Shown: positions 37,427 through 58,992 of the stretch, one piece after another
How positions within the stretch are numbered: the stretch's first letter is position 1
Layout: each line of letters opens with the position of its first letter
Source: Coriobacteriia bacterium
GTDB lineage: Bacteria; Actinomycetota; Coriobacteriia; Anaerosomatales; SLCP01
Assembly: GCA_007121015.1 (NCBI GenBank)
Contig: SKMN01000012.1
Span: 150 to 64,149 of the forward strand
Direction of reading: 5' to 3'
DNA: 64,000 bases
The notes under the pieces: model-generated
Seen by the model: the letters and a program-made list of their open reading frames with translations, nothing else
What the model was told of the DNA's origin: nothing
The model's database searches: none
Translations under genes and position numbers: made by a program

Positions 37427-38569
37427 ATGGCAGCGATCACGGCACGCATCTCCAGCTTCTTCGGGCGCGTACCGCGCTGGGTCTACATCGTCGCAGTGCT
37501 CGCCTTCGCGATCGCGTTCCCGATGCTCGAGTACTTCGGCCTCATGCAGACCCTCTGGCTCAGGGTCGGCACCCGGGCGCTCGTCTACGTGCTCCTGGCG
37601 GTCGGACTCAACCTCGTGCTCGGCGAGACGGGCCTGCTCCACCTCGGATACGTCGCGTTCTTCGCCGTTGGGGCGTACACCACGGCGATCCTGTCCTCCC
37701 CGCGCTTCGACATACAGTGGAACTTCTGGGTGATCATCGCGATCGCCATGGGTCTCGCGATGCTGTTCGGGTTCCTCATCGGCGTGCCGACGTTACGGTT
37801 GCGCGGCGACTACCTGGCCATCGTCACGCTCGCGTTCGGCGAGATCACCCGGATGACGCTCAACAACTGGGAAGGTCTCACGAACGGTCCGGGTGGCATC
37901 CCGGGCATCTACCCGCCACAGATATTCGGCTGGACCGTGGATTCACCCGCCGAGTTCTTCTACTTGCTCCTTGTCACAGTGGTGATAGTCGTGTGGTTGC
38001 TCAACAACCTCAAGAACTCGCGGATCGGCCGCGCGTGGAACGCCTTGCGCGAGGACGAGATCGCGGCACACCACGCGGGTGTGGGACCCACGCGGGCGAA
38101 GATGCTCGCCGTAGTCATGAGCTCGGGCATCGCGGGCCTTGCCGGGGCGATCTTCGCCTACTATCAGCAGTTCATCAATCCCACGTACTTCCTGTTCATG
38201 CAGTCGGTGATCGTGGTCTCGATGGTCGTCATCGGTGGAATGGGTTCGATACCCGGCGCCATACTGGGCGCGGTCGTACTCGATACGACGCCGGAGATCA
38301 TCCGGCAGACGTTCACATCGTGGCTGCCAGCCGCCATCGGACCCGACTTCCTGCCCGGTGTGCAGGCGGCGATGCAGACGGAGTTCGACCGGTACAGGAT
38401 GGCGATATTCGGACTCGTGATCGTGCTCATGGTCGTCTTCAGACCCGAAGGCCTGCTTCCCAACAAGCTGTGGCGCCGAGAGATGCACGAAGAAGACCCG
38501 CGCGAGCTCGAGAAGACGGGCCAGCACCTCTTCGACTTCGAAGAGGGCACGCAGGACCTGGAGGTGTAG
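37427..38569 (+). CDS. livM: Branched-chain amino acid ABC permease LivM
   Basis: LNLVLGETGLLHLGYVAFFAVGAY and TLAFGEI motifs. ATG 37427 lies 3 nt after the livH stop. Confidence 0.88.
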   Translation: MAAITARISSFFGRVPRWVYIVAVLAFAIAFPMLEYFGLMQTLWLRVGTRALVYVLLAVGLNLVLGETGLLHLGYVAFFAVGAYTTAILSSPRFDIQWNFWVIIAIAMGLAMLFGFLIGVPTLRLRGDYLAIVTLAFGEITRMTLNNWEGLTNGPGGIPGIYPPQIFGWTVDSPAEFFYLLLVTVVIVVWLLNNLKNSRIGRAWNALREDEIAAHHAGVGPTRAKMLAVVMSSGIAGLAGAIFAYYQQFINPTYFLFMQSVIVVSMVVIGGMGSIPGAILGAVVLDTTPEIIRQTFTSWLPAAIGPDFLPGVQAAMQTEFDRYRMAIFGLVIVLMVVFRPEGLLPNKLWRREMHEEDPRELEKTGQHLFDFEEGTQDLEV

Positions 38570-43039: not shown

Positions 43040-43123
43040 TGCCGTGCGAGGCCGCCCAAGAAGCGGACTTGGGCATCGCTCTGCTCAGGAATGCGTGCTC
43101 CGATCGTGAAGGGAGGTGCAACT

Positions 43124-43408
43124 ATGGCGAAGGTACTAGAGGGCCACGTGCTGACCTGTTCGGCACTCGACTGCTCGTACAACGATGAGCGCTGCTGCAG
43201 CGCTCCGAACGTCGAGGTGGGCTCCGACCACCCCAAGTGCGACATGTACACGACAGCTCCGGTGGAGCGCTCGTCGATCGAGCCGATGATCTCAGGATGC
43301 GCGATCAGCGAATGCGCGTTCAACACATCGGACGACTGCCGCGCAGCGGCCGTGACGATGATGCCGCACAGCGGGCATGCGGACTGCGGCACGTTCCGTA
43401 CCGCGTGA
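43124..43408 (+). CDS. DUF1540 domain protein (two Cys-rich repeats)
   Basis: Two repeats of C..(L/I).C.(Y/F)N....C.A..V... (VLTCSALDCSYNDERCCSAPNVEV and ISGCAISECAFNTSDDCRAAAVTM). GGGAGG lies upstream of ATG 43124. Confidence 0.7.
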   Translation: MAKVLEGHVLTCSALDCSYNDERCCSAPNVEVGSDHPKCDMYTTAPVERSSIEPMISGCAISECAFNTSDDCRAAAVTMMPHSGHADCGTFRTA

Positions 43409-44027: not shown

Positions 44028-45362
44028 TTAGGCGATCTCGAAGCGTTCGTAGTGGAGTAGCTTCCGATCGACGCCCATCTCTCCCAGTGCACGTTCTACG
44101 CCGTCGATCATCGCGGGTGGGCCACAGATGAGATACTCGTAGGCGTCGACATCGTCTATGGCTCTCTTGAGGAGATCGTCGGTGATGACGCCGACCTCGC
44201 CGTCCCATCCTTCCGGGGGGTTCTCGAGGACGTACGTGATCTCGAGATCCAGTCTCTGGGACAGTTCATCGAGTTCCCCGGAGAAGACGAGGTCTTGCTT
44301 CGCAGCGGCGCCGTACACGAGGACCATCGGTGTCGGGTCACCGCGTTCGGCGGCGTCACGGATCATGCTCATGATCGGCGTGATGCCGACGCCGCCGGCG
44401 ATGAACGCGTAGCGATCTGCCGTGTGGCGGTCGGTGGTGAACGCCCCGAAGGGGCCATCGACGTACGCCATTGTGCCGGGAGGATACTCGCCGATCTTCG
44501 ATGTGAAGTCGCCGAGCTCCTTGATGGTCATGTCGAACCCGCCGTGCTCGCGATCGGGGCTGGACGAGAACGAGAAGGGGTGCTCGGTGAGTGAGAACGG
44601 GGAGCGGCCGATGGTGACCCATGCATGCTGACCGGGCCTGAACCGGATACCCGGATGACCGTCCGGACGGAACGTGAGCGTCCACACGTCGGGTGATTCC
44701 TGCCGCACCTCGGTCACGCGGTATGGGTTGCGGAGCTGCCGGAGCGGTTTACCGACCCGGATGTAGCCGAGCGTCCCGACCCATATCGCCGCGTACGCTA
44801 CGAATGCATGCGTCTTCCAGTCGCTCGTGTAGACCCCGGTGTTCAACGTGTGGAGTGCCGCCAGAACCAGGATGGTCAAGGCACCGAGGCCGTGGCTGAA
44901 CCGCCACAGTTCGTAGCGCAGACGAACCTCACGGCGCCATACCGAGATCGCGACGATGCCGGCCACACCCAACACGGTCGCCACCGCGTACCGTGCCGAC
45001 CATGGTGCCGTGATCACGTTGAGCAGCTCGACACGATCCGGGGTCACCACGAACAGAAGTATCGGATGCGTGAGCACGAGTGCGAGCGCGACGAAGGCCA
45101 TCCGCCGGTGGAAATAGTACACGGCATCGATCCCGTAGGGTGCCTTGAGGCGGCCCACACGGGCGGATATGGCGAACTGCGTGCCGAGGATACCTACCGC
45201 TACGAACCCGAGCGCCACCGCGAACTCACGCAAGAACTCGCGGCCAGGTTCAAGCGGCGAGAGGAGCATGAGCGAGACCGGAGCGAGGACGAGCGCCAGG
45301 TACACGGCTATGCCGAGTGCGGCACGCCGCCGATAGGCCTGCCGTCCGATCCGATGTGCCAC
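44028..45362 (-). CDS. Ferric-reductase-domain (NOX-like) flavocytochrome: 6-TM heme domain fused to an FAD/NAD(P)H-binding domain
   Basis: Two TM helices each carry a His pair spaced by 13 residues (FHRRMAFVALALVLTH and SHGLGALTILVLAALH). FAD motif HPFS, NAD(P)H motif GGVGITP, and a C-terminal CGP motif. Confidence 0.8.
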   Translation of the reverse strand: MAHRIGRQAYRRRAALGIAVYLALVLAPVSLMLLSPLEPGREFLREFAVALGFVAVGILGTQFAISARVGRLKAPYGIDAVYYFHRRMAFVALALVLTHPILLFVVTPDRVELLNVITAPWSARYAVATVLGVAGIVAISVWRREVRLRYELWRFSHGLGALTILVLAALHTLNTGVYTSDWKTHAFVAYAAIWVGTLGYIRVGKPLRQLRNPYRVTEVRQESPDVWTLTFRPDGHPGIRFRPGQHAWVTIGRSPFSLTEHPFSFSSSPDREHGGFDMTIKELGDFTSKIGEYPPGTMAYVDGPFGAFTTDRHTADRYAFIAGGVGITPIMSMIRDAAERGDPTPMVLVYGAAAKQDLVFSGELDELSQRLDLEITYVLENPPEGWDGEVGVITDDLLKRAIDDVDAYEYLICGPPAMIDGVERALGEMGVDRKLLHYERFEIA

Positions 45363-45373
45363 CGTTGGCTTCC

Positions 45374-45790
45374 TTATGCCTCGGCATCACTCTTGCGCGC
45401 AAGGACTGAAAGCTGCTCCTCGGCGATGTCCTTCATCACCTTGGCGCGGGCGATGGGGTCGAGACGTCCGAGTTCCGCCCGCACGGTCTCCTCGGCGACC
45501 TCGATCCGCTCTTCTCGGATCTGAAGCGCTCCAGCGATGAGGAGGGACGCTCCACCGGTGAGCAACACCGCAGGAAGGAACCACGCCCACATGCCCCGCC
45601 GGCCGCTGAGCGACGTCCACACAGCGGCGACTGCTCCCAGTCCGAACATAGCCGCACCCGCTGCAGTCTCGATGACCTCGGGCTCCGGCAGTTCCTCGCG
45701 CCACTCGTCTATGCGCTCCCGTATCTCCGGGATACGGTCTTTGTACTCGTCGATGCGCTCTCGATACACGTTCATGTCCATACCGATCAC
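45374..45790 (-). CDS. Hypothetical membrane protein (charged helical ends flanking a 2-TM core)
   Basis: 138 aa. It has an N-terminal (R/E/D)-rich helix, two TM segments, and a C-terminal charged helix. Its stop lies 11 nt upstream of the NOX-like gene. Confidence 0.5.
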   Translation of the reverse strand: MIGMDMNVYRERIDEYKDRIPEIRERIDEWREELPEPEVIETAAGAAMFGLGAVAAVWTSLSGRRGMWAWFLPAVLLTGGASLLIAGALQIREERIEVAEETVRAELGRLDPIARAKVMKDIAEEQLSVLARKSDAEA

Positions 45791-45864
45791 CTCTCGGGCC
45801 GATTCACCGTCATAGAGGGAGTGTTCCCGTTCCGGGGCGTGCTACATCATGTGGGATCGCTGAA

Positions 45865-46230
45865 TCAGGCAGCGTGCTCGACCTCGGCGAGCGAGACGGC
45901 AGGTGTCGCGCCGGTGCGCACGGCCCGGGGGAGCGAAAGCAGGCGCATCCCGGCAGGGCGGGCACCGTACGTGAGGATGAGGCTCACCATGGCGACGCTG
46001 AACAGCAGGCTCACGCTGTTGGTGAACAGTACGGCGATGGTCCCGGTGGTGAGAAGCAGGTGGACGGCGTAGACCTCCATCGCGAGGAGGCCTGCAAAGA
46101 CGCTGAGCCACATCGACAAGCTGAGGTCGTGGGCCGAGCGCGTGGTGATGATGCGCCGGATCTGAGGGACGTACCCCGCACACAGGATGACGCCGCCGCC
46201 GATCTGAAGAAGTTCCATGATGCTTCCCAT
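45865..46230 (-). CDS. PQ-loop (SemiSWEET-like) membrane protein
   Basis: LCAGYVPQIRRI is a PQ motif. There are three TM helices. The start was set at ATG 46230 (MGSIMELL); the ORF-track start at 46380 is upstream. Confidence 0.6.
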   Translation of the reverse strand: MGSIMELLQIGGGVILCAGYVPQIRRIITTRSAHDLSLSMWLSVFAGLLAMEVYAVHLLLTTGTIAVLFTNSVSLLFSVAMVSLILTYGARPAGMRLLSLPRAVRTGATPAVSLAEVEHAA

Positions 46231-46402: not shown

Positions 46403-49048
46403 TCATCGGCCCGAACCGGCGACTATAGCGGTCATCACGAGAAGGAACACGACCACGATCGCTGCGATACCAAGACTCGTGTCGCGCGCGTATCGCTGGA
46501 TCTGTCGCCGGGTCTTGAGTACTGTGTCGGGGTCGATCTGCTGAGGAACGGACCAGCGCGAATGTTCTTCGGTGGCCGCCTCGATGACAAGCCGTACGAG
46601 CTCGATACCCCAGCGTAGGAACGCTTCCACCCGGCCGAACCAGCGGACTCGCAACCGGCCCAGTGCGCCGGTGGCGCGAGTTACACCTTCGCCGAGAGAG
46701 TCGTGGACGCCAGGGTGGGTAGGGGGTAGATGGTGCCTGGCGGTGCGGAGCCGTTGGTCGAACCGCTCTTCTTCGGACAGGCGGTCGACCGCGGCGGACA
46801 TCTGATCGACGACGTCGAGTCCGCACATGCGTTGTTCGGCCAGTTCGAGAGCGGTGTGGGCGACCTCACTGCGGAACACCCGGATGTCGTGCAGCGCGTG
46901 CTCGAATCCACGCCGGACAGCCTCTACCTCGCCGGATCGCACCATCTCTGCGAGAGCCCGTGTGCGCTGCCCGTGCTGACGCCTGGTCATGTGTGCCGCT
47001 ATGTCCCGGACGGCTTCCAGTGTCTCGTGAGCACGTTGAGCACTGAAGTCATCGCGTTTCTGGAGCCAGGTGTGGGCCTTCGTCACCGCGTAGCGCACGG
47101 TCACCTCGCGCTCCCTGTCAAGCGCGGCATGGGCGGTTCTAACGAAGTGCCGCCCCTTGATTCCAGGCGTGCCGGCGGCGACGACAACAGCGAGGTGGTC
47201 GATGTCCCTCTCGAGGAGGTGCCACAGCGAACGAATCCCGAGTAGCGCGTTGCGGACGGAACGAGAAACCGCATCCAGGTAGGCGCGGTGCGCACGGCCC
47301 GCCCACGACGACCAGTCGATGAAGCCGTTCGCGAAGGCGCGATACCAATAGTGTACGCCGAACCAGGAGGGGGCGCGCAGGTGGAACAGGCCGAACCGCA
47401 TACCTATGGCGTAGGCTACAGCGCCGATCGCGAACGCGATCACCGTCGACATGAGGTCGGCGGGACTTAGGAAGTACACATCGAGGTAGTAGTCGAGCCC
47501 GTCTGCGGGGAGCGCCCACGCAATCAGGCCGGGTCCCAGCAGTCCCTTCAGGAGAAGTCCGGGCCTCACGCCGAGGACGACGATCGCGGCCGCAAGTATG
47601 CCGAGCGCGACGAGCATCCTCGGCGGCGGGTCTGCGACTTCGGGTCCGTACTCGCGCTCCGGTTTCCCGAAGAACACGAGACCTATCAGCTTGATGAACG
47701 AGCACGCGGTGCCACCGCAGGTGACGAGGTATATCTTCTCGGCGATGTCGAGCGATGCGAGGTGCTGGACCTCGTAGGCCTGCTCGAGCGCGTGGTGGAC
47801 GAGGCACTTGCTCACGAACCCGTTGAAGAGCGGCACGCCCGTGATGCCCGCGGCGGCGACCAGCATGAACGCAAAGGTCCACGGCATCTTGCGCCACAGT
47901 CCGCCGAGTTCATACATATCGCTCCGTCCGGTGCGGTAGACGACCGCCCCGATACCGAGGAACAGCGCGCTCTTGAAGAGTGCGTGGTTTGCGGCGTGGA
48001 AGAGTCCACCGGCGGTCCCCATGGCGCCCTCGAGCCCTATATAGCCGGCGGCGCCTATGCCGACAAGGATGAACCCCATCTGGCTCACGCTGTGGTAGGC
48101 GAGCATCCGCTTGGCGTCGTGCTGGCCAAGGGCGAGTACGACGCCGATCGCCATCGTGGCTATGCCGAGCCAGAGCACCGTAAGTCCGAACGAGGCGGTC
48201 ATGTGCCAGAGCTGTTCCGACACGTCGGCGACGACCTCGGGACGGAAGAGCGCGCTGACCGTGCGGAAGATGCCGTATGCGCCCGCCTTGATCATCACGC
48301 CCGACAGAAGCGCACTCGCGGGCGCCGGTGCGACCGGATGCGCATCGGGGAGCCACACGTGTACCGGCACCATGCCGGCTTTGACGCCGAACCCGCCCAC
48401 GAGTAGGCCGAACGTGATCCACCGGAGTGTTTCGGGGCTGTCCGAGAGGGGCAGTGGGCCGAGCGAGGCGTCGCCTCCTAGCGCCTGCGTCAGGAAGATG
48501 CCGCCGATGAGAGCGAAACCACCGAGCACCGTCATCCACAGGTACGTGACGGACGCCCGTGATGCTTCTGCTGTACGCGCGTGGATCACGAACAGGAATG
48601 CGACGAGTCCGAGAGCCTCGAAGAACAGGTAGAGCGTGACGAGGTCGCCGGCAAGCACGACACCGAGCATCGATGCGAGTACGACGAGGCTCGTGCTGTG
48701 GTACAGGTCGCGGTGTTCGTGGTGCTTCAGGTAGTCGAACGAGTACAGGGTGGCGCAGAACCACACGAACGTCGCGAAGAGCGCGAACACCATACCGAAC
48801 GGGTCGGCTACGAACGTCAGCCTTCCGATCATCGCCGGGATCTCAGCACCCACCCGGTGGTTCGCTGCGACGAGCGGGAGGAGGGCGGCCGCTCCGAGCA
48901 GTGTTGTCCCGCTTACGCCGAGTACATATGCGTTCCGGAGACGAGGACTCCATCTGCCGAGCGGCCGAACGGCTGCGGCCGCCAACAGTGGTCCGAGTAC
49001 GAGGAGCACCGGTAAGGGGTGCGAGGCTATGTCGGCGATCCCAGTCAT
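46403..49048 (-). CDS. MrpA/NuoL-like antiporter subunit with a long C-terminal helical extension and a terminal TM helix (881 aa)
   Basis: The N-terminal ~550 aa form a proton-conducting-membrane-transporter fold (LYLFFEALGL with the TM5 Glu, GFGVKAGMVPVHVWLPDAH with the TM7 Lys). About 300 aa of charged helical sequence follows, then IAAIVVVFLLVMTAIVA. Confidence 0.85.
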   Translation of the reverse strand: MTGIADIASHPLPVLLVLGPLLAAAAVRPLGRWSPRLRNAYVLGVSGTTLLGAAALLPLVAANHRVGAEIPAMIGRLTFVADPFGMVFALFATFVWFCATLYSFDYLKHHEHRDLYHSTSLVVLASMLGVVLAGDLVTLYLFFEALGLVAFLFVIHARTAEASRASVTYLWMTVLGGFALIGGIFLTQALGGDASLGPLPLSDSPETLRWITFGLLVGGFGVKAGMVPVHVWLPDAHPVAPAPASALLSGVMIKAGAYGIFRTVSALFRPEVVADVSEQLWHMTASFGLTVLWLGIATMAIGVVLALGQHDAKRMLAYHSVSQMGFILVGIGAAGYIGLEGAMGTAGGLFHAANHALFKSALFLGIGAVVYRTGRSDMYELGGLWRKMPWTFAFMLVAAAGITGVPLFNGFVSKCLVHHALEQAYEVQHLASLDIAEKIYLVTCGGTACSFIKLIGLVFFGKPEREYGPEVADPPPRMLVALGILAAAIVVLGVRPGLLLKGLLGPGLIAWALPADGLDYYLDVYFLSPADLMSTVIAFAIGAVAYAIGMRFGLFHLRAPSWFGVHYWYRAFANGFIDWSSWAGRAHRAYLDAVSRSVRNALLGIRSLWHLLERDIDHLAVVVAAGTPGIKGRHFVRTAHAALDREREVTVRYAVTKAHTWLQKRDDFSAQRAHETLEAVRDIAAHMTRRQHGQRTRALAEMVRSGEVEAVRRGFEHALHDIRVFRSEVAHTALELAEQRMCGLDVVDQMSAAVDRLSEEERFDQRLRTARHHLPPTHPGVHDSLGEGVTRATGALGRLRVRWFGRVEAFLRWGIELVRLVIEAATEEHSRWSVPQQIDPDTVLKTRRQIQRYARDTSLGIAAIVVVFLLVMTAIVAGSGR

Positions 49049-49055
49049 GGTGGAC

Positions 49056-50552
49056 CTAGCGGAAGAAGGCGTCGACGGCGAGTTGCGCGAGTGAAAGCGG
49101 GGAGCCGGGCACGGTGGCAGCCAGGCCGAGCGCGAGGGTCATGAGCGATGCGACGATCGTGGGAACGAGCATGCCGGCGGGAGCCTCGGACTCAGTGTCG
49201 TCGCGCTCGGCCGACGAAGACGGCGGCTCTCGGAAGTAGGCGCTGTAGATGATCGGCAACAGGTAGACCGCCGCTATCAACGAGCCACCCAGCAGAACCG
49301 CCAAGTAGAACGGCTGGCCCGCATCGAGTATCCCGAGGCCGAGGTACCATTTACTGATGAAGCCGGCGAGTGGGGGCGTGCCGATCATGCCGAGCGATGC
49401 GAGGGAGAACGCCGCCATCGTCCACGGCATGCGCCGGGCCACACCCGCCATCTCGCTCACGCTCCGGATGCCCGCACGCTTGCTCAGGAGTCCAGCACAC
49501 AGGAAGAGGGCACCCTTCATGAAGGCGTGATTCGTGATGTGTACGAGTGCTCCGACCGCCGCGCCCGCGCCCAGCAGGGCGATGCCGAGTGTCACGTATC
49601 CCATCTGGCTGATCGTCGAGTACGCGAGACGGCGCTTGATACCGTCCTCGCTCACGGCGAGCACTGCCGCGAAGAACACCGTGAATGCGGCGAAAGCCGC
49701 GACATACGGCATCACGCCTAGATGTGTGAGAATCTCGATTCCAAACACCTGGAACACCACGCGTGCTATCCCGAAGGTGCCCGCCGCGACCATCACGCCC
49801 GACAGCACCGCCGAGAAGGGCGCCGGCGCAGCCGGGTGCGCGTCGGGCACCCACCCGTGCAGGGGTACGATGGCGGCTTTGACCCCGAAGCCCGCGATGA
49901 AGCACCAGAAGATCGCGCGCAGCACGCCCACGTCCGTCTCGCTGCCAAGAAGTCCGCCGGCAGTGAGTGTCTGATCTCCAGCGACGAAATAGGTGAACAC
50001 CACACCCACGAGGACAAGGCTGCCGCCGATCAGGATGTAGACGATGTACTTGGTGCCTGCCGCCAGCGCGGCCGGGGTCTCATCGTGGACGATGAGGGGG
50101 TAGGTCAGTATCGAGAAGAGTTCGTAGAAGATCAGAAAGGTGAGCAGGTTTCCCGCGTAGGCGACGCCCATCATACAGCCGAGGCACAACATGAGGAACG
50201 CGTAGAAACGGTTCAGACGATGACTGTCCGCCATATGTGATAGCGAGTAGACGAGCACGAGCACCCAGAGGCCGGCCACCGTCGCACCGAACAGGACGCC
50301 GAGCGCATCGACGCGCAGATGCAGCCAGATCTGCGGGGTCACGCGTAGCAGGTACGCCTCTCGGATCTCACCGGTCATCGTTGCCGGTACGAACGAGAAC
50401 GCGAGTGCCGCAGTGACGGCGCAGGCCACCACTAACACCACATTTCGGGCACTCCTGGACGTGCGCCCAAGGATCGGCGCAAGCATGGCGCCGGCGATCG
50501 GCAGGAGCACCGCGAACACCGGGGCGGTCGAAGACATCAGTGAGTCGTCCAC
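49056..50552 (-). CDS. MrpD/NuoM/N-like antiporter subunit (third tandem copy in operon order)
   Basis: FLIFYELFSILTYPLI (Glu) and GFGVKAAIVPLHGWVPDAH (Lys). The start is GTG 50552 or ATG 50537. Confidence 0.88.
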   Translation of the reverse strand: MDDSLMSSTAPVFAVLLPIAGAMLAPILGRTSRSARNVVLVVACAVTAALAFSFVPATMTGEIREAYLLRVTPQIWLHLRVDALGVLFGATVAGLWVLVLVYSLSHMADSHRLNRFYAFLMLCLGCMMGVAYAGNLLTFLIFYELFSILTYPLIVHDETPAALAAGTKYIVYILIGGSLVLVGVVFTYFVAGDQTLTAGGLLGSETDVGVLRAIFWCFIAGFGVKAAIVPLHGWVPDAHPAAPAPFSAVLSGVMVAAGTFGIARVVFQVFGIEILTHLGVMPYVAAFAAFTVFFAAVLAVSEDGIKRRLAYSTISQMGYVTLGIALLGAGAAVGALVHITNHAFMKGALFLCAGLLSKRAGIRSVSEMAGVARRMPWTMAAFSLASLGMIGTPPLAGFISKWYLGLGILDAGQPFYLAVLLGGSLIAAVYLLPIIYSAYFREPPSSSAERDDTESEAPAGMLVPTIVASLMTLALGLAATVPGSPLSLAQLAVDAFFR

Positions 50553-50562
50553 GGCCCTCACC

Positions 50563-52038
50563 TCACATCCTAAAGACGAAGCGCACGGCAGCCTCGGCGA
50601 GCGAGAACGGCATCCCGGCCACCTCTGACGTCGTTCCAAGTGCGATCACCCATATCGCGCACACGAGTGTCGGAACGAGGAGCGTCGGGCGCGCCTCCTT
50701 CATGGGCGCTGCGGCGCCCCGCGCCGGCTTGAAGAAGGCAAGGTACACGATGGGCAGGAAGTAGGCGGCGTTCAGCAACGAGCTCGTGATCATCACGAGC
50801 AGGAACCACCACTGCCCCGATTCGAGTGCACCGAGTGAGATGTACCACTTGGTGATGAATCCGGCGAACAGCGGCATGCCGATGAAGCTCAGCGACGCGA
50901 CGGTGAACGCACCCATCGTCCACGGCATCTGATGGCCGATACCGGCCAGTTCGTGGACGTTCGTCTTTCCGGTGGTCCGCTGGATGGCTCCCGCAACGAA
51001 GAACATGGTGATCTTCGCGAGTGCTTGGTTTGCGAAGTGCACGATCGCCGCGGTCGCCGCGAATGGCGTGAGCATGCTTGCCGCCAAGACGATGTAGGAG
51101 ATCTGGCTGATCGTCGAGTACGCGAGGCGGCGCTTGAGGTCGTCTTGGAAGATGGCGATGACGGACGCTGTGATGATGGTGAATGCAGCAAGCGCAGCAA
51201 GGGGGAGTGTGAATCCCAGACCGTCCAACAGGTCGACACCGAACACGTTGTAGACCGTGCGCACGATGCCAAATGCCCCGGCCTTCACCACGGCCACTGC
51301 GTGCAGCAGTGCGCTGACCGGCGTAGGGGCCACCATCGCTCGGGGGAGCCAGCCATGCAGCGGCATCAGCGCTGCCTTGGTCGCGAACCCGATCACGAGC
51401 AAACCGAAGATGAACCCGAGCCTACCAGTGCCTATGCCGGCGTCCAGGATGCCCGGATGACCCAAGCTGATCGTGCCGGTAGCGTCGTGCACCATCACCG
51501 TTCCTACGAGCACGAAGGCCCCTCCGATAAGCGTGTACGTCAGGTACGCCCGCCCCGCACTCAGTGCCTCAGGCGTCTCGTAGTGGATCACGAGGGGATA
51601 GGTGCAGATGGTAAGCATCTCGTAGAAAAGGAAGAAGGTCAGGAGGTTCTCGGCGAACGCGATGCCCACCGTCGTGGAGACACACAGCGCAAAGAATCCG
51701 AAGAAGCGGACGCGTTTCTCATCCTCTCTCATGTAGCCGATAGCGTAGACGGTCGTCGCCACCCACAGGCTCGAAGAGACGAGAGCAAAGAACATCCCCA
51801 GGGCGTCGGCACGGAATCCAAGACCGATGCCACCTGTGAAGTCGACAAGATCGAACGTGTAGACGACGCCCTGAAGCGATCCGGGCAGCATGGACAGCAC
51901 GATGAGCATCTTGATGGTTGCGGCAGACAGCATCCAGAAACGGCGCCAATGCGTCTTGCGGCCGAACAAAAAGACCATGCCGGCGCAGGCGAAGGACATC
52001 GCGGGTGCGAGCAGCGGCCGGATGTCCACTACTTCCAT
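50563..52038 (-). CDS. MrpD/NuoM/N-like antiporter subunit (second copy)
   Basis: FFLFYEMLTICTYPLV and GFATKAALMPLHGWLPRAM; 491 aa. Confidence 0.88.
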   Translation of the reverse strand: MEVVDIRPLLAPAMSFACAGMVFLFGRKTHWRRFWMLSAATIKMLIVLSMLPGSLQGVVYTFDLVDFTGGIGLGFRADALGMFFALVSSSLWVATTVYAIGYMREDEKRVRFFGFFALCVSTTVGIAFAENLLTFFLFYEMLTICTYPLVIHYETPEALSAGRAYLTYTLIGGAFVLVGTVMVHDATGTISLGHPGILDAGIGTGRLGFIFGLLVIGFATKAALMPLHGWLPRAMVAPTPVSALLHAVAVVKAGAFGIVRTVYNVFGVDLLDGLGFTLPLAALAAFTIITASVIAIFQDDLKRRLAYSTISQISYIVLAASMLTPFAATAAIVHFANQALAKITMFFVAGAIQRTTGKTNVHELAGIGHQMPWTMGAFTVASLSFIGMPLFAGFITKWYISLGALESGQWWFLLVMITSSLLNAAYFLPIVYLAFFKPARGAAAPMKEARPTLLVPTLVCAIWVIALGTTSEVAGMPFSLAEAAVRFVFRM

Positions 52039-52039
52039 C

Positions 52040-53539
52040 TCAGCCTCCCAGCGGGGCGAGGAGTCGAGCGACCCCGGGCTCGATGAATGTGAGGGGTACG
52101 CGGCCGAGGATGCCCATGATCAGGCAGAGGCTCGCGAGCACCAATGTGGGCAGGAGCATCGACACGGGGGCATCTTTCGCCTCGGCCACCTCGGCATGAA
52201 CCGGCTCTCGGAAGTAAAACGCGTTCACCATCCTGATGTAGTAGATGAAGATGAGGAGCGCCCCGAAGATGAGCACGAACCCGAAGAAGGGCCGATCGGC
52301 CTGGAAGGCGCCGAGGGCGATGTACCACTTGCACAAGAAGCCGGCGGTTGGCGGGATGCCGACGATGGAGATGGCCCCGACAGAGAGCGCCACCGCGGTC
52401 AGAGGCATGGCCCGTCCCACACCTCGCAGGTCGGTCAGGGTGCGGTATCCGGTCCGATAGATGATCGCGCCGACGGCGAAGAAGAGCGTCGCCTTGATCA
52501 GGGCGTGGTTGAAGATGTGCACGCTTGCGCCGATGACGCCATAGGTGGTTGCAAGTCCGAGACCCATGACGATGTAGCCGATGTTGGATATGGTCGAGTA
52601 GGCGAGCATGAGCTTCACGTCGTCTTGGAAGACTGCGAAGAACGCGCCCATCACGATCGATATCGCACCGAGCCATATCAAGACGAGGTTGAGCACGGTG
52701 AGGTCGAACATGCCTGAGCCGTAGTAGATCCGGTACACACGGATCATCCCGATGACCCCGACCTTCACCACGAGTCCTGATAGCACCGCACTCACCGGGC
52801 TCGGTGCGGCAGCGTGGGCATCCGGCAGCCAGACATGAAGCGGGAAGACCGCCGCCTTCGTGGCGAAGCCGACGACCAGCATGCCGAGTGCGACTGCCGC
52901 AGGTGCAGTGGGTCCCTCGAATCCATGAAGCCGCGCGGTCACGTCGGCGATGTTGAGAGTGCCGGTGATGCCGTAGAGAAACCCTATCGCGAACAGCACG
53001 AGTAACGACGAGATAGCACCCATGAGCAGGTACTTGAAGGCGGCCATCTCGGCGATGCGTTCCCCTCCCACGGCTACGAGCGCGTACCCGGAAAGCGAGA
53101 GGACCTCCATGAAGACGAAGAGGTTGAAGAGGTCGCCCGTGACGGTGAAGCCGATCATCCCGCCACAATTGAGCAGGAGTAGCGTGTAGTAGTAGGGCGT
53201 GCGGCCTCGCGCGAACTCGGGCAACGAGTCGGTGTATCGGCTGGAGAAGAGGACCGCCAGCCAGCCTACGAGACAGATGACGCCGACGACCGCACTGAAC
53301 TCGTCGAAATGCAACTCGATGCCGTACGGGGCGGTCCATCCTCCAGGGACATACGAGAACGGCCCTTCATGGAAGATGCGCAGCACAAGCATGGTCGCGG
53401 CGAACGACGTGACCGTCATTGTGCTGAGTGCCCACCACGTCGGTGTCCGACGGTCGATCAGGGCTACGACGGGAGTGAGCGCCGCTCCGACGAGCGGCGT
53501 CAGCACGATGAGCGCGAGCCAGTGAGGCCAGAGGTGCAC
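52040..53539 (-). CDS. mrpD: MrpD/NuoM/N-like antiporter subunit (first copy)
   Basis: LFVFMEVLSLSGYALV and GFATKAAVFPLHVWLPDAH; 499 aa. Confidence 0.88.
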   Translation of the reverse strand: MHLWPHWLALIVLTPLVGAALTPVVALIDRRTPTWWALSTMTVTSFAATMLVLRIFHEGPFSYVPGGWTAPYGIELHFDEFSAVVGVICLVGWLAVLFSSRYTDSLPEFARGRTPYYYTLLLLNCGGMIGFTVTGDLFNLFVFMEVLSLSGYALVAVGGERIAEMAAFKYLLMGAISSLLVLFAIGFLYGITGTLNIADVTARLHGFEGPTAPAAVALGMLVVGFATKAAVFPLHVWLPDAHAAAPSPVSAVLSGLVVKVGVIGMIRVYRIYYGSGMFDLTVLNLVLIWLGAISIVMGAFFAVFQDDVKLMLAYSTISNIGYIVMGLGLATTYGVIGASVHIFNHALIKATLFFAVGAIIYRTGYRTLTDLRGVGRAMPLTAVALSVGAISIVGIPPTAGFLCKWYIALGAFQADRPFFGFVLIFGALLIFIYYIRMVNAFYFREPVHAEVAEAKDAPVSMLLPTLVLASLCLIMGILGRVPLTFIEPGVARLLAPLGG

Positions 53540-53893
53540 TTACTCCAGCTCCCTCAGTTCGTCCGCCTCGATGGTCCCGAAACGGCGATAGACGCGGATG
53601 ATGAGAGTGAGCGCAAGCGCCGTCGTCGAGACGGCGACCACGATGCCTGTCAGCACGAGCGTCTGCGGCAACGGGCTTGCGAACGGACCGTGAGCATCGC
53701 CGGTCATGATGGGCGGTTGGCCGTCCTCGATGACTCCGAGCGCGATGATAAAGGCGAACACCGCAGTCTCCATGATGTTCAAGCCGAGGAACTTCTTGAT
53801 GAGGTTGTTCTTAGCGATGACCACGTACAACCCGATACAGAAGAGCACTACCGAGGCCACGTAGTCGATGTTGTGCCAGAGGGCAGTGAGCAT
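53540..53893 (-). CDS. mrpC: MrpC/MnhC (NuoK-like) subunit
   Basis: VVLFCIGLYVVIAKNNLIKKFLGLNIMETAVF...LVLTGIVVAVSTTALALTL. ATGA overlap with the mrpB stop. Confidence 0.88.
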   Translation of the reverse strand: MLTALWHNIDYVASVVLFCIGLYVVIAKNNLIKKFLGLNIMETAVFAFIIALGVIEDGQPPIMTGDAHGPFASPLPQTLVLTGIVVAVSTTALALTLIIRVYRRFGTIEADELRELE

Positions 53894-54642
53894 CAGCTCG
53901 CCTCCATCTGCAGAAAGATCATGGCGAGGACGGCAGCGCCACCCAGGGCGATTCCGACCTCGAGAGCGATCAGCATGAGGTCGCGAACGATGCGGAGCGA
54001 GGGGTCGACAGGGAAGCCCAGGTAGACTCCGGTCAAAAGCGCACCGACGGCGCCAACCGCAGCGAACGTGAGTACCGCCGCACCCTGCATCCACGGGGCG
54101 AGAACCGGGCGTACGAGCGGTCGGGTCCGTTCCTTGCCGAGCACCATGGTGAGGGCGATGAACAGCCCGCCGAGAATGGCACCGCCCTGGAACCCACCAC
54201 CCGGGGTCACGTGACCGTGCAGTATCACGTACGCCGCGTAGAGGGCTGTGAACGGTGCGATGAGCCGCACGACGAAGTGCACGATGGGGCTCACCGGATG
54301 ATCGGGATGTCGCCTGTCCGCATCGCTTCGCCGAACACGGCCGTCGTGGTTGCTCGCGTCAGCATCTCGCGTGCTAGCAACGGTGAGCACGGCGAGTACG
54401 GCGATGAGCGCCGTGAAAATCACCGTGACCTCACCGGCAGCGTCGAGTCCACGGTAGTTCAACAAGACGCCCGTCACGAGGTTGGACGCGCCGGCCTCTT
54501 CCACGCCATGCTCGATGTATCGTGCCGACACGTGAGTGTGTACGGGTGCGGAAGGATCGCCGTGGACTGGAAGTCCTGCTACTCCCGCCAGCAGAGGGAC
54601 AGCAGCGAGAAAGGCGAGGGATATGGCGATGGGCCTCCTCAC
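53893..54642 (-). CDS. mrpB: MrpB/MnhB subunit
   Basis: NLVTGVLLNYRGLDAAGEVTVIF...HVTPGGGFQGGAILG. GTGA overlap with the preceding gene. The upstream part of ORF 53893..55221 is not coding. Confidence 0.82.
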   Translation of the reverse strand: MRRPIAISLAFLAAVPLLAGVAGLPVHGDPSAPVHTHVSARYIEHGVEEAGASNLVTGVLLNYRGLDAAGEVTVIFTALIAVLAVLTVASTRDADASNHDGRVRRSDADRRHPDHPVSPIVHFVVRLIAPFTALYAAYVILHGHVTPGGGFQGGAILGGLFIALTMVLGKERTRPLVRPVLAPWMQGAAVLTFAAVGAVGALLTGVYLGFPVDPSLRIVRDLMLIALEVGIALGGAAVLAMIFLQMEAS

Positions 54643-54881
54643 TTCTCTCGCCTCGTCGTCCGGCCGATGGCTACGAGGAAGAGAACGGTCGTGATGCCGG
54701 CACCGACCGCCGCTTCGGTCATCGCCACGTCCGGTGCCCCGCGATACTGCCACAGCAGGCACAGCGCGAGACCGTAGGAGGAGAAGACGATCGACGCGGC
54801 GAGGAGGTCTTTGGCACGCGCGACCACCAGCGCTGCCGCGATCAGGTAGAGAAGCAGGAAGATGTCGAAGGTCAGGCTCAT
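54639..54881 (-). CDS. DUF4040 protein (stand-alone equivalent of the MrpA C-terminal domain; MbhD-like)
   Basis: 80 aa with three TM helices (LLLYLIAAALVVARAKDLLAASIVFSSYGL...PDVAMTEAAVGAGITTVLFL). It lies between mrpG and mrpB. Confidence 0.7.
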   Translation of the reverse strand: MSLTFDIFLLLYLIAAALVVARAKDLLAASIVFSSYGLALCLLWQYRGAPDVAMTEAAVGAGITTVLFLVAIGRTTRREK

Positions 54882-55483: not shown

Positions 55484-55972
55484 TCACTCCTCGAAGATGC
55501 GGGAGATTCGTCGCGCAAGATCACCGCGCGAGATGTCATCGGCGAAGCTGGCGTCGAGACAGTGGATGAGAAATCGGTCGTCTTCTACGTCGATCACCAC
55601 CGCACCTGGCGTCATGCCGATCGAGTTCGCGTACGCGACACGCGAAACCTCGCGCTCGAATCTGGCGCGGTGTTCGACCGTCACCGGGGCCAACGGCATG
55701 CGAGGGTCGAGGACGATGCGGGCAACATGTGTCGCTGCGAGAAGCATGTGTGCGAGCAGGTAGGGGACGAATAGCAGCAGTCGGGATGTGTGTCCGAGAG
55801 TGAGCAGGGGGGCGTCGTCTGTCCACAACAGCCGTGCCGCGAGTACGCCGAGGAGGCTGGATAAGGCGAGTCCCGTGACCAGGTCGGCTGCAGCGATCGA
55901 TCCGGTCAGGACGAGCCAGAACGCGAAAAGCGCCACCGATGCCTGCACGGCCTTCACTGTCGGCCTCCTCAA
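55484..55972 (-). CDS. mrpE: MrpE/MnhE subunit
   Basis: ALFAFWLVLTGS...NSIGMTPGAVVIDV is an MnhE-like pattern. It is the first gene of the minus-strand operon. Confidence 0.8.
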   Translation of the reverse strand: MRRPTVKAVQASVALFAFWLVLTGSIAAADLVTGLALSSLLGVLAARLLWTDDAPLLTLGHTSRLLLFVPYLLAHMLLAATHVARIVLDPRMPLAPVTVEHRARFEREVSRVAYANSIGMTPGAVVIDVEDDRFLIHCLDASFADDISRGDLARRISRIFEE

Positions 55973-56031
55973 GCCTTGGCGGAAACTCCCGTCAGGCCTC
56001 CCTCATACTGGCTCAGCCACAGTCGTCTACG

Positions 56032-56052
56032 GTGCTCATACCCGTTGAGCAC
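56032..56052. promoter_or_regulatory. Perfect 7-N7-7 palindrome in the mrpE/gltS divergent intergenic region (candidate operator)
   Basis: GTGCTCA-TACCCGT-TGAGCAC, 60 nt upstream of the mrpE start and 73 nt upstream of the gltS start. Confidence 0.45.
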
Positions 56053-56124
56053 ACGTTGCACCTGCGCAGCTCGTCGACGTCATCCGGCACAAGCAATCGC
56101 GCGCATTGGGTAATACACACCTAC

Positions 56125-57546
56125 ATGGGAGTCGCGCAGACACTGATAGCGCTCGGGTGGGCGACGGGGTTCGTGGTGGCGGCGAAGGTCGCTCACCGGC
56201 ATGTGAAGGTGTTTCGGACGCTCTTCATCCCGAGTTCGGTCATCGCCGGCATCGCGGCGCTGCTCATCGGGCCGCAGGTGCTCGGTGCGCTCGCGACGTC
56301 GCTGGAGTGGGGCGACCCCTTTGCGGGCGGGCTCGTTCCAGAGAGCGTGCTCGACGTGTGGTCGGCGATACCTGGACTCCTCATCAACGTGGTGTTCGCC
56401 GCGCTCTTCCTCGGCAAGAGGATCCCGCCGCTGCGCGACATCATCCGAATCGCCGGTCCGCAGGTCGCGCTCGGCCAGAGCATGGCGTGGGGGCAGTACG
56501 TCGTGGGCATCCTGCTGGCGATCGCGGTCCTGCAGCCGGTGTTTGGGATGAACCCGGCAGCCGGGGCGCTCATAGAGATCGGCTTCGAGGGTGGCCACGG
56601 CACGGCTGCCGCGCTCGAGTCGACGTTCGCGGAGTTCGATTTCGCCGAGGGCTCCGATCTCGCGCTCGGGCTCGCGACGTTCGGGCTCGTCGCAGGAGTG
56701 CTCTCGGGGCTCGCGATCATCAACTGGGGTCTTCGCACCGGGCGGATCGACCGCGAGCTGATCGAGGGCGACGGGATGCCTGCGGAAGAGGAGGCGGAGT
56801 CGCTCGGAGAGTTCGACGAGCGCGAGCATGATCAGGGCGATCCTCACGAGGACGTCGCGATCGATCCGCTCTCGGTGCACCTCGGGCTCATCGCCGTGGC
56901 CATCGCGCTCGGCTGGCTGCTGCAGCAGGGGCTCATCGCGCTCGAGGCCGCGACGTGGGCGCGCGATGACGGACTCGAGCTGTTCCGCCATATCCCGCTC
57001 TTCCCGCTCGCGATGATCGGGGGTCTGGCCCTCCAGATCGGGCTCACCCGGCTCGGCGACGCGGGACCGCACGTCGATCGCGCACTCGTGAACCGCGTCT
57101 CCGGCGCTTCGCTCGATCTCGTCATCGTCACGGCGCTCGGCACACTCTCGCTCGCGGTGCTCGGGGACAACATCGCGCCGCTGCTCATCTTGGCGGTAGC
57201 CGGACTCACCTGGAGCGTCGTCGCATTGCTGGTGCTTGCCCCGCGCATCGTCCCGGACCACCCTTATCAGCGGGGATTGGCGGATTTCGGGCAGTCGACC
57301 GGCATGACCGTGACCGGTCTGCTCCTCGTACGGATGGTCGACCCCGATGGCCGCACGAAGGCGATGGAGGGCTTCGGCTACAAGCAACTCCTCTTCGAGC
57401 CATTCGTGGGCGGCGGGCTGTTCACCGCGATCTCCGTGCCGCTCATCGTGCAGCTTGGCCCGTGGCCGGTGCTCGGCATCACCGCAGCTCTCATGGTCAT
57501 CTCGATGGGGGTCGGGATCCGCTTCTTCGGCCCGGACGGGCGCTAG
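56125..57546 (+). CDS. gltS: Sodium/glutamate symporter GltS-family protein
   Basis: FIPSSVIAGIAALLIGPQVLG and IEIGFEGGHGTAAAL motifs. It is polytopic. The ORF-track start at 55939 is upstream of the likely ATG 56125. Confidence 0.75.
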   Translation: MGVAQTLIALGWATGFVVAAKVAHRHVKVFRTLFIPSSVIAGIAALLIGPQVLGALATSLEWGDPFAGGLVPESVLDVWSAIPGLLINVVFAALFLGKRIPPLRDIIRIAGPQVALGQSMAWGQYVVGILLAIAVLQPVFGMNPAAGALIEIGFEGGHGTAAALESTFAEFDFAEGSDLALGLATFGLVAGVLSGLAIINWGLRTGRIDRELIEGDGMPAEEEAESLGEFDEREHDQGDPHEDVAIDPLSVHLGLIAVAIALGWLLQQGLIALEAATWARDDGLELFRHIPLFPLAMIGGLALQIGLTRLGDAGPHVDRALVNRVSGASLDLVIVTALGTLSLAVLGDNIAPLLILAVAGLTWSVVALLVLAPRIVPDHPYQRGLADFGQSTGMTVTGLLLVRMVDPDGRTKAMEGFGYKQLLFEPFVGGGLFTAISVPLIVQLGPWPVLGITAALMVISMGVGIRFFGPDGR

Positions 57547-57587: not shown

Positions 57588-57669
57588 TAGAAGGGACTCA
57601 AGGGTGCACATTTCGGGGTAGACGTGTGCGCCCGAGCCCTGTCCCCGGCCTTTGGGAGGCCCTATAGCT

Positions 57670-58992
57670 GTGGGTATACACGAGACCCGGCTCGAAGCCG
57701 TCGCCGCGCGCATCGAAGGCGCCGACGACCCCGCCCGCTGGCGGGACTGGCGATGGCAGCTCCGTAACTCGCTTACGACCCTCGACGCTGTCGAGGAGGC
57801 GCTCGGCATCGAGTTCGATGCGGCCGAGCGCGTACTGCTCGAGGAGACACTCCAGCAGTTCCCGTTGTCGGTGACCCCGTACTACCTCTCGCTCATCGAC
57901 ACCGGCGACTTCCGAAACGACCCTGTGTTCCGGCAGGCGCTCCCGTCAGACGAGGAGATCGTCGTCGAGGAGCACGACATGGTCGACCCGCTCGCCGAAG
58001 ACCAGGACAGTCCGGTACCGCTCATCACACATCGGTATCCTGACCGGGTGCTCTTCCGCGTGAGCAACACGTGCTCGATGTATTGTCGCCACTGCACGCG
58101 GAAGCGCACCGTGGGAGACAGGGACTGCGTCCCGACGACAGAAGAGCTCGCGGACGCGCTCGACTACATCCGCGCCACGCCGGGCGTGCGCGACGTGCTG
58201 CTGTCCGGCGGCGACCCGCTCATGCTCTCCGACGACCGCCTCGACGAGATCCTCTCGGCGCTCGACGCTATCGAGCACGTCGAGGTGGTGCGGATCGGTA
58301 CCCGTATGCCAGCGGTGCTCCCGTACCGCATCACCGACGAGTTCTGCGAGATGCTTCGGCGCCATCGGCCGGTATGGCTCAACACGCATTTCAACCATCC
58401 CAAGGAGCTCACGCCTGATGCCGAGGAGGCCCTTGCGCGGCTCGCAGACGCGGGCGTACCCCTCGGCAACCAGACGGTGCTCCTCGCAGGCGTCAACGAC
58501 TGCTCGCGCATCATGTTGCGGCTCGTCCAGCGTCTTGTCGCCAACCGCGTGCGACCGTACTACCTCTACCAGTGCGACCTCTCTGAAGGACTCTCGCACT
58601 TCCGCACGCCGGTCGGTAAAGGCATCGAGATCGTCGAGAGCCTCATAGGTCATACGAGCGGGTTCGCGGTACCTACGTACGTCGTGGACGCCCCGCACGG
58701 GGGCGGCAAGATCCCGGTAATGCCCAACTACATCGTGTCGTGGGCATCGGACAGGGTCGTGCTGCGCAACTACGAGGGCGTCATCTGCACGTATCGCGAG
58801 CCGGATCGCTACAAGCGCGCAGCGTGCAACGAGGAGTGCGACGACTGCGAGCGCTCGGTCGCCGCAGGCTGCCGCGGCCACGAGTCGAGCGGGGTCGCCG
58901 GACTGATGCGTGAGTGCGACCCGGTCGAAGCGCTCGTGCCGAGCACCAACGAGCGGCACCAGCGCCGCGAGGGAGTGTCCGCCGATGAGTGA
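57670..58992 (+). CDS. ablA: Lysine 2,3-aminomutase (radical SAM, KamA/AblA)
   Basis: [12 protein letters not shown] (the CxxxCxxC radical-SAM cluster), [10 protein letters not shown] and [11 protein letters not shown] 57670 lies 9 nt after GGGAGG. Confidence 0.9.

Follow-up and report, generated by a model that had tools for sequence, protein, structure and literature searches.

What is the long, charged tail of an antiporter-like membrane subunit, and what might it do? The question is raised by a gene at positions 46403..49048 (minus strand) of a 64,000-nucleotide stretch of Coriobacteriia bacterium DNA (contig SKMN01000012.1, assembly GCA_007121015.1), which was analyzed as a whole and is called the window below. 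A stop-free open reading frame (ORF) there translates into an 881-residue NuoL/MrpA-type protein, the last product of a ten-gene operon. As a preliminary description of this DNA had stated, a ~555-residue antiporter core (counted with transmembrane helix 15, TM15) is followed by ~300 residues rich in Arg, Ala, Glu and His and by one terminal transmembrane (TM) helix; the three peptides quoted there are present in the translation. In Mrp complexes, a lateral helix (HL) connects TMH15 with TMH16 on the cytoplasmic (N) side, "braces" the antiporter-like subunits and links the TM7 breaks (PMC7419157). The preliminary description read the tail as a possible several-fold longer version of this single helix. 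We propose that it is probably a canonical strap (the lateral-helix linker with its terminal anchor) carrying a dispensable, cytoplasmic all-alpha insert of ~190–230 residues, which acts as a passive structural buttress.

The length of an ORF is in itself weak evidence for a gene in this region, because DNA of 65% GC yields many spurious overlapping ORFs. Between positions 38000 and 58000 of the window, both strands contain very many long overlapping ORFs off the coding frame, with lengths of up to 479 residues. The composition of the tail is R 13.5%, A 12.5%, V 9.8%, L 8.9%, E 6.4% and H 5.8%. Its GC content at the three codon positions (GC1, GC2, GC3) follows the pattern of the core, with GC3 above both GC1 and GC2. 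More than 100 homologue clusters cover 95–100% of the 881-residue protein, and the terminal TM helix and the basic motif preceding it are kept in the same frame across homologues. The tail is therefore real coding sequence. A GC-rich artefact or a gene fusion as the origin of the long ORF is ruled out by the conservation, the GC3 values and the in-frame terminal TM helix.

The core identifies the type of subunit. Pfam places Proton_antipo_M (PF00361) at residues 133–423 (E = 5e-56) and Proton_antipo_N (PF00662) at residues 77–114. The antiporter core with TM1–14, defined by alignment and AlphaFold2 (AF2), comprises residues 1–528 (47465..49048; this and all further features of the gene and its operon are on the minus strand), and its predicted local distance difference test (pLDDT) values are mostly above 90. 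Residues E144, K223, K254, H355, K359 and K414 are invariant in an alignment of 102 homologues. TM15 follows at residues 529–555 (47384..47464) according to hydropathy, with an AF2 helix at 529–552. In a Foldseek comparison with the PDB, the core aligned best with MrpA, NuoL and MbhH structures. The top matches were the MrpA chains 6z16_A (E = 2e-25) and 7qru_A (E ~1e-25), and Nqo12 (4he8_F, E = 3e-20, target-normalized template modeling (TM) score 0.75) and MbhH (6cfw_H) were also near the top. The protein thus shows the features of an L-type subunit, namely a core with charged residues, the TM15–linker–TM16 arrangement and three-dimensional similarity. Judged from its sequence, it would be the distal L-type (NuoL/MrpA-N-like) subunit of a ten-gene Mrp (CPA3) complex with four antiporter-like subunits, encoded in a Coriobacteriia genome of the OPB41/Anaerosomatales type. 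Its place in an operon with four such subunits, assigned earlier, was recovered with Pfam and NCBIfam.

Hydropathy gives a TM helix at residues 529–555, nothing hydrophobic at 558–852 and one strong TM helix at 857–879 (peak 2.98). The supposed location of the extension at the lateral helix/TM16 position is borne out, since it lies between TM15 and the C-terminal TM helix and the core is closest to MrpA chains. Two independent AF2 runs were carried out, one on the full-length protein with 102 homologues (pLDDT 84.5, predicted template modeling score (pTM) 0.71) and one on residues 557–881 with 27 diverse homologues (pLDDT 82.5, pTM 0.58). Both agree on the helix boundaries and predict an all-alpha tail of seven to eight helices. 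The N-terminal lateral-helix segment (residues 560–624, 47177..47371) begins with a conserved start motif and contains a predicted 60-residue amphipathic helix, 565–624, with a hydrophobic moment of 0.83. It ends at a Gly/Pro turn (residues 625–629, 47162..47176), where AF2 breaks the helix and pLDDT falls below 50 at residues 626–628. The turn reads GTPGI in the window protein and TGAPGPR in the family consensus, with G626 conserved in at least 90% of the sequences.

Beyond the turn lies the core of the inserted all-alpha module, residues 630–773 (46730..47161), which was delimited from AF2 and the conservation track. Its predicted helices comprise residues 630–663, 670–704, 708–741, 747–761 and 763–773, and pLDDT reaches 95–98 over residues 636–766 in the extension-only model. 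A variable loop (residues 774–793, 46670..46729) with pLDDT below 50 and a gappy alignment with insertions is probably disordered. It leads to the C-terminal lateral segments (residues 794–854, 46487..46669), where AF2 places helices 794–826 and 840–854 with low to medium confidence. The basic RYARD motif and the terminal TM helix, the equivalent of TM16, close the protein (residues 852–879, 46412..46495, from hydropathy and conservation).

Conservation follows this anatomy. The aromatic interfacial start motif AP-WFGVDYWY is conserved in long and short forms of the protein, and the motif W----R-D---V--TR--IQRYARD is conserved in the C-terminal lateral segment. R852, Y853, R855 and D856 are invariant or nearly so, and the RYARD motif with the TM helix is retained in every short form. 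Every relative thus keeps the ends of the tail (AP-WFGVDYWY and TR--IQRYARD with the TM helix), whereas short forms lack the middle or have other sequence in its place. The spacing between the end motifs has a median of 299 residues with an interquartile range of 297–301, and the long forms range from 273 to 358. The module has its own motifs (LERERQ-TVR-AV, DAVRDIA-YMA-R, RRM-GE and ERFD), with R681, R695, R740 and E761 invariant; R855 is invariant near the anchor.

Could the middle of the tail be fast-evolving, nearly neutral filler, produced by slippage or duplication in a permissive linker and without a function of its own? The extension diverges much faster than the core, with 25–49% identity across homologues compared with 46–79% for the whole protein, and the module has been lost in some lineages. 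Tandem peptide duplications occur in the variable loop of P0004, P0020 and P0009/P0011/P0014 (for example, AHIQQLGTRAQDL twice), and P0024 has part of the first helix (H1) in two copies (WYERYLAAVSR-LRS twice). Local duplications in the loop and H1 thus lengthen the linker. However, residues 630–770 are confidently structured and carry invariant residues, and the length of the module is tightly conserved. Neither are internal repeats detectable among the helices; in hhalign comparisons the best pair, H3/H5, reached a probability of 18.5% (E 0.0013) and all other pairs stayed below 3%, none of them convincing. We consider such filler extremely unlikely. A mean-field direct coupling analysis of 126 extension sequences (effective number of sequences, Meff, ~100) returned a few recurring hub positions as top pairs, not contacts, and was discarded.

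The preliminary description had the tail as one extra-long amphipathic lateral helix of ~300 residues, scaled to the extra MrpD subunits and clamping the longer arm. Such a helix would occupy the correct topological position between TM15 and the terminal TM helix, and the region is amphipathic and fully helical in the prediction. A precedent is found in 2M complex I and the complex I of Ca. Manganitrophaceae, where HL lengthens by ~26 residues per added pumping subunit (PMC9040806). However, AF2 breaks the region into seven to eight helices, with the conserved Gly/Pro turn and the probably disordered loop. Only helix 565–624 and the last two helices are candidates for running along the neighboring subunits, and the middle ~145 residues form separate helices of ~34 residues. 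The dimensions also disagree, as 300 helical residues would extend over ~450 Å compared with the ~120–150 Å needed to span three MrpD subunits, at the published ~26 residues per added subunit (PMC9040806).

The relation between tail length and subunit number also contradicts this reading. In operons of these same ten genes, three for MrpD among them, the L subunit measures 577, 651, 668–721 or 846–973 residues; L subunits of 690 residues belong to the operons of P0114 and P0119, which have the same gene set. With the number of antiporter-like subunits constant at four, the linker comprises ~60 residues, 68 (P0089), 108–139 (a small short-form clade) or 273–358. One contig combines a long with a short form: L058:3071-22248 (JGI 3300025135) contains two tandem ten-gene operons of equal subunit number, the first encoding an L subunit of 899 residues with the long module and the second one of 577 residues with a ~60-residue linker. 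Extension length does not track the number of MrpD paralogues, contrary to the correlation that had been suspected, and operons with four subunits and no extension, the case the preliminary description had singled out as speaking against it, were found among the short-L homologues. The number of additional antiporter-like subunits also needs correction from three to two, counted relative to the classical Mrp with MrpA and MrpD. A single extra-long helix is, in our view, very unlikely. In locus L057, the second tandem operon copy is broken into many short genes, through either pseudogenization or sequencing frameshifts.

A gain of ~26 linker residues per extra antiporter-like subunit, as in the 2M type of complex I, is not what these operons show. 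At this rate, three MrpD subunits would need ~80–100 residues, which the short forms match. In the window protein, helices 565–624, 794–826 and 840–854 add up to 108 residues, which also matches this range, although the agreement may be a coincidence. Spanning the extra subunits does not require the module.

A natural deletion that takes out precisely the helical module illustrates that the insert can be removed. Loci L002 and L014 are 98.7–99.8% identical in DNA over ~20 kb, and L002 lacks exactly 690 bp (230 codons, in frame; L002:11800/11801 versus L014:9767-10457). The junction shows no evident repeat. In the window protein, the equivalent of the deleted segment is residues 601–829 (46562..47248), according to the L002/L014 comparison. 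The 651-residue product of L002, P0089, still has the beginning of the strap as well as the RYARD motif and the final TM helix, so that loss of the module leaves the reading frame and the anchor intact. An assembly error is an unlikely source of the 651-residue form, which is recorded on two contigs and has a clean in-frame junction. In a neighbor-joining (NJ) tree of the cores, which is distance-based and carries no support values, the P0089 variant falls inside the Coriobacteriia long-form clade, and the clade of 668–721 residues lies between two long-form clades. This placement is only suggestive of an origin of the module in the ancestor of the family, followed by at least two losses.

How widespread is the module? 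Neither Pfam nor NCBIfam assigns a family to residues 555–881, and in Pfam searches of 27 aligned members, any family that was found occurred in two of them at most. When the extension profile was compared with PDB sequences, the best E was 0.47. Foldseek with the extension model against the PDB returned only generic long helical proteins (best E = 0.099, template modeling score at most 0.2). The earlier statement that the extension contains no known soluble domain agrees with these empty searches. An exhaustive search of 1.84 billion representative proteins with the extension profile gave 59 matches. Every full-length match carries the extension directly after an antiporter core of ~550 residues, and the shorter ones look like fragments of the same protein. 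A word-indexed protein search with the extension alone gave one match and was misleading, as full-length and profile searches recovered the family. Given the lack of domain matches and the few profile hits, the module is a rare, unannotated element confined to one protein family.

A second, divergent long-form clade (P0127, P0180, P0188 and P0201, 853–907 residues) carries a homologous module, with P0127 matching the extension profile at E = 1e-60. A GTDB scan missed the clade of the P0127 type because of its different anchor motif (RYARDVALNI). One member of this clade is labeled as a Gammaproteobacteria metagenome-assembled genome. In the literature searched, no description of an insert of this kind was found. 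The plasticity of the lateral-helix linker is known; in this family the linker hosts a conserved, domain-sized module. The module defines an unannotated domain family and is a lineage-specific curiosity, not a new mechanism.

Published work on complex I shows that HL braces the complex and tolerates insertions at several sites, and that mutagenesis affects mainly stability, which does not fit a piston (PMC3274701). Because the published HL stabilizes the complex and tolerates insertions, a canonical strap into which a structured segment has been inserted is the reading of the tail that we prefer. We propose that the amphipathic linker leaves TM15, runs along the neighboring MrpD on the cytoplasmic face and is pinned by the final TM helix. 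Helix 565–624 (~90 Å) together with helices 794–826 and 840–854 (~70 Å) would span the three MrpD subunits, and the terminal TM helix would anchor beside the proximal MrpD or the small-subunit module. At the TGAPGPR turn, the chain may leave the membrane surface and enter an antiparallel bundle of ~50-Å helices (residues 630–773), which would project from, or sit on, the cytoplasmic face before the chain returns through the variable loop. The basic residues that flank the terminal TM helix (KTRRQIQRYARD) fit a cytoplasmic location of the linker. The membrane arm is unusually long, and the bundle could then stiffen or thicken its strap by serving as a passive buttress on the cytoplasmic side. 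The module shows no motif for catalysis or ligand binding.

Several observations weigh against this proposal. How the bundle packs and where it lies with respect to MrpD were deduced only from helix lengths, short loops and confidence values, and both, like the bracing function, may differ from what is drawn here. The linker of the deletion allele (68 residues) is shorter than the 108–139 residues of the natural short-form clade, and the allele may be crippled, in which case it would not prove the module dispensable. The tight module length and the invariant Arg, Glu and Gly residues represent more constraint than a mere spacer needs and could reflect a specific partner or function. In addition, the module has a median net charge of +5, which does not obviously favor packing on the cytoplasmic surface of MrpA-N/MrpD, as that surface is positively charged (PMC7419157).

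The same constraint bears on the idea that the module is a functional cytoplasmic domain, that is, a docking platform or a regulatory or sensor element that might bind a nucleotide second messenger, some soluble partner or a further Mrp complex and in this way modulate or couple the antiporter. The conserved module length (297–301) and the invariant R681, R695, R740 and E761 would be consistent with such a domain, and the NJ tree suggests an old module that two divergent clades have kept. Furthermore, nine loci have a GGDEF (diguanylate cyclase) gene immediately upstream of mrpE and on its strand, including L001:2243-3088 (4-bp overlap with mrpE), L002:2227-3135 and seven others. However, the window has no GGDEF gene; a divergent Glt_symporter-like gene (55939-57546, plus strand) is found upstream instead. 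A search for a conserved neighbor or partner gene found none in more than 13 of 55 loci, the module shows no recognizable binding motif or domain, and it appears to have disappeared at least twice from operons that otherwise persisted. Overall, a functional domain of this kind is unlikely. A specific variant, in which the four-pump Mrp arm is gated by, or coupled through the module to, some soluble partner or signal from another part of the genome, seems to us improbable. If true, it would represent an unrecognized way to control or energetically couple an Mrp-type arm through the lateral helix.

The long helices could also mediate oligomerization, through dimer or higher-order contacts between Mrp arms, or shape the membrane. 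Mrp complexes are dimers with a functionally important membrane deformation (PMC7419157), and the weak Foldseek neighbors of the extension are long helical bundles, including domains of the BAR type. However, those matches are insignificant (E at least 0.1, template modeling score at most 0.2), and Mrp complexes are known to dimerize at the MrpE/G end, a long way from L (PMC7419157). The helices show no heptad-repeat signature beyond ordinary amphipathicity, and internal repeats are missing, as described above. We regard a role in oligomerization or membrane shaping as highly unlikely.

The passive buttress that we favor can be compared with several known systems. The NuoL/Nqo12/ND5 subunit of complex I has the same 14-TM core, TM15, amphipathic linker on the N side and C-terminal TM anchor (HL and TM16), and its HL likewise is a brace and not a piston and accepts insertions (PMC3274701). 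Truncating E. coli NuoL at Y590 takes away TM16 alone (PMC3274701). However, the HL of complex I is essentially one kinked helix over two subunits, whereas the tail described here has ~300 residues in seven to eight helices with a bundle-like insert, and the operon has neither a redox arm nor a NuoH-like gene. The solved MrpA proteins of Anoxybacillus flavithermus (6z16), Bacillus pseudofirmus (7qru) and Dietzia (7d3u) are the best matches of the core and share the seven Mrp families, and their HL similarly runs from TMH15 to TMH16 and braces the complex (PMC7419157). In contrast to the L subunit of the window, canonical MrpA has a fused MrpB-like domain after TM16, and its HL spans one MrpD. 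The window subunit ends at TM16, its C-terminal domain is encoded separately (MbhD and the MbhE/MnhB fusion), and it is combined with three MrpD subunits and a module of ~230 residues.

Insertions in HL together with extra antiporter-like subunits are also found in the NuoL of the Nitrospira "2M" complex I and in MrpD2 of the Ca. Manganitrophaceae Complex_I_3 (PMC9040806). Insertions of the 2M type are helical, comprise ~26 residues and scale with the subunits, whereas the module here has ~190–230 residues and does not scale. The Group 3 Mrp clusters (PMC5703873) resemble the operon in that their genes are irregularly ordered, mrpD is present more than once and the parts of MrpA/B are split or rearranged. 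Examples are mrpFGBCDDAE of Microbacterium sp. TS-1 and the cyanobacterial mrpCD1D2EFGAB (PMC5703873). The present operon differs in having three mrpD genes and an L-type gene at its 3' end, and PMC5703873 describes no L-type gene with a long linker. The window operon also shares features with the Pyrococcus membrane-bound hydrogenase (MBH), with its MbhH and MbhI subunits: MbhH is among the top matches of the core, and the operon contains genes of the Pfam families MbhD and MbhE. MBH has its lateral helix on a small subunit of its own and an attached hydrogenase module, two features that the system in the window lacks.

The lateral helix of complex I and Mrp has been much debated as either a piston or a brace. 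Here, a structured module within the strap keeps a fixed length in dozens of species and is cleanly removed in at least one near-identical genome. This corrects the attractive but wrong view that the number of pump subunits can be read off directly from the length of the linker. It also provides a natural handle on the function of the strap, and a cultured host exists.

The operon that carries the L gene is tightly packed and has the order E-F-G-MbhD-MbhE/MnhB-C-D-D-D-L. MrpE (PF01899, 55484..55972) is the first gene, followed by MrpF (PF04066, 55202..55477) and MrpG (PF03334, 54885..55211). An ORF for an MbhD-like small subunit of 80 residues is at 54639..54881; PF13244 is found at the equivalent position in L001–L004, L057 and L058. 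Next is a fusion of MbhE (its DUF4040 part, PF20501) with MnhB (PF04039) at 53893..54642, placed with its start codon, which is equivalent to the MrpA C-terminal domain plus MrpB. The MrpC/NuoK-like subunit (53540..53893) was assigned by PF00420, by NF005621 above its cutoff and by its start codon. The first two MrpD paralogues, with 499 residues (52040..53539) and 491 residues (50563..52038), are supported by PF00361 and NCBIfam. The third (49056..50561, PF00361) adjoins the L gene, which is separated from its stop codon by only 7 nucleotides. Its probable start codon is the GTG at 50561, for a length of 501 residues compared with 499–504 in homologues.

The families of MrpA (N and C parts), B, C, D, E, F and G are thus all encoded together, as assigned by Pfam and NCBIfam and, for MbhD, by position. 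Genes resembling NuoB, NuoD or NuoH or hydrogenase genes were not found in the operon, either in the window or in the flanks of L001–L004 and L057–L058. This gene content points to the set of the Mrp/CPA3 family of multisubunit cation:proton antiporters. The order E-F-G-MbhD-MbhE/B-C-D-D-D-L is invariant over ~40 loci with enough flanking sequence, and it is also seen with L subunits of 690, 651 and 577 residues. A scan for a minus-strand terminator downstream of the L gene found none.

Three genes follow downstream of the operon on the same strand and are not kept beside it in other loci (44028-46224). They encode a PQ-loop/SWEET-like small membrane protein (45865-46224), a 138-residue protein with a charged N-terminal helix, two TM helices and no family match (45374-45790), and a flavocytochrome of 444 residues with ferric-reductase-like TM, FAD and NAD parts (44028-45362). 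Two plus-strand genes farther away are unrelated to the L subunit, namely a gene for a small Cys-rich DUF1540 protein (43091-43408) and a radical-SAM gene resembling lysine-2,3-aminomutase (57652-58992).

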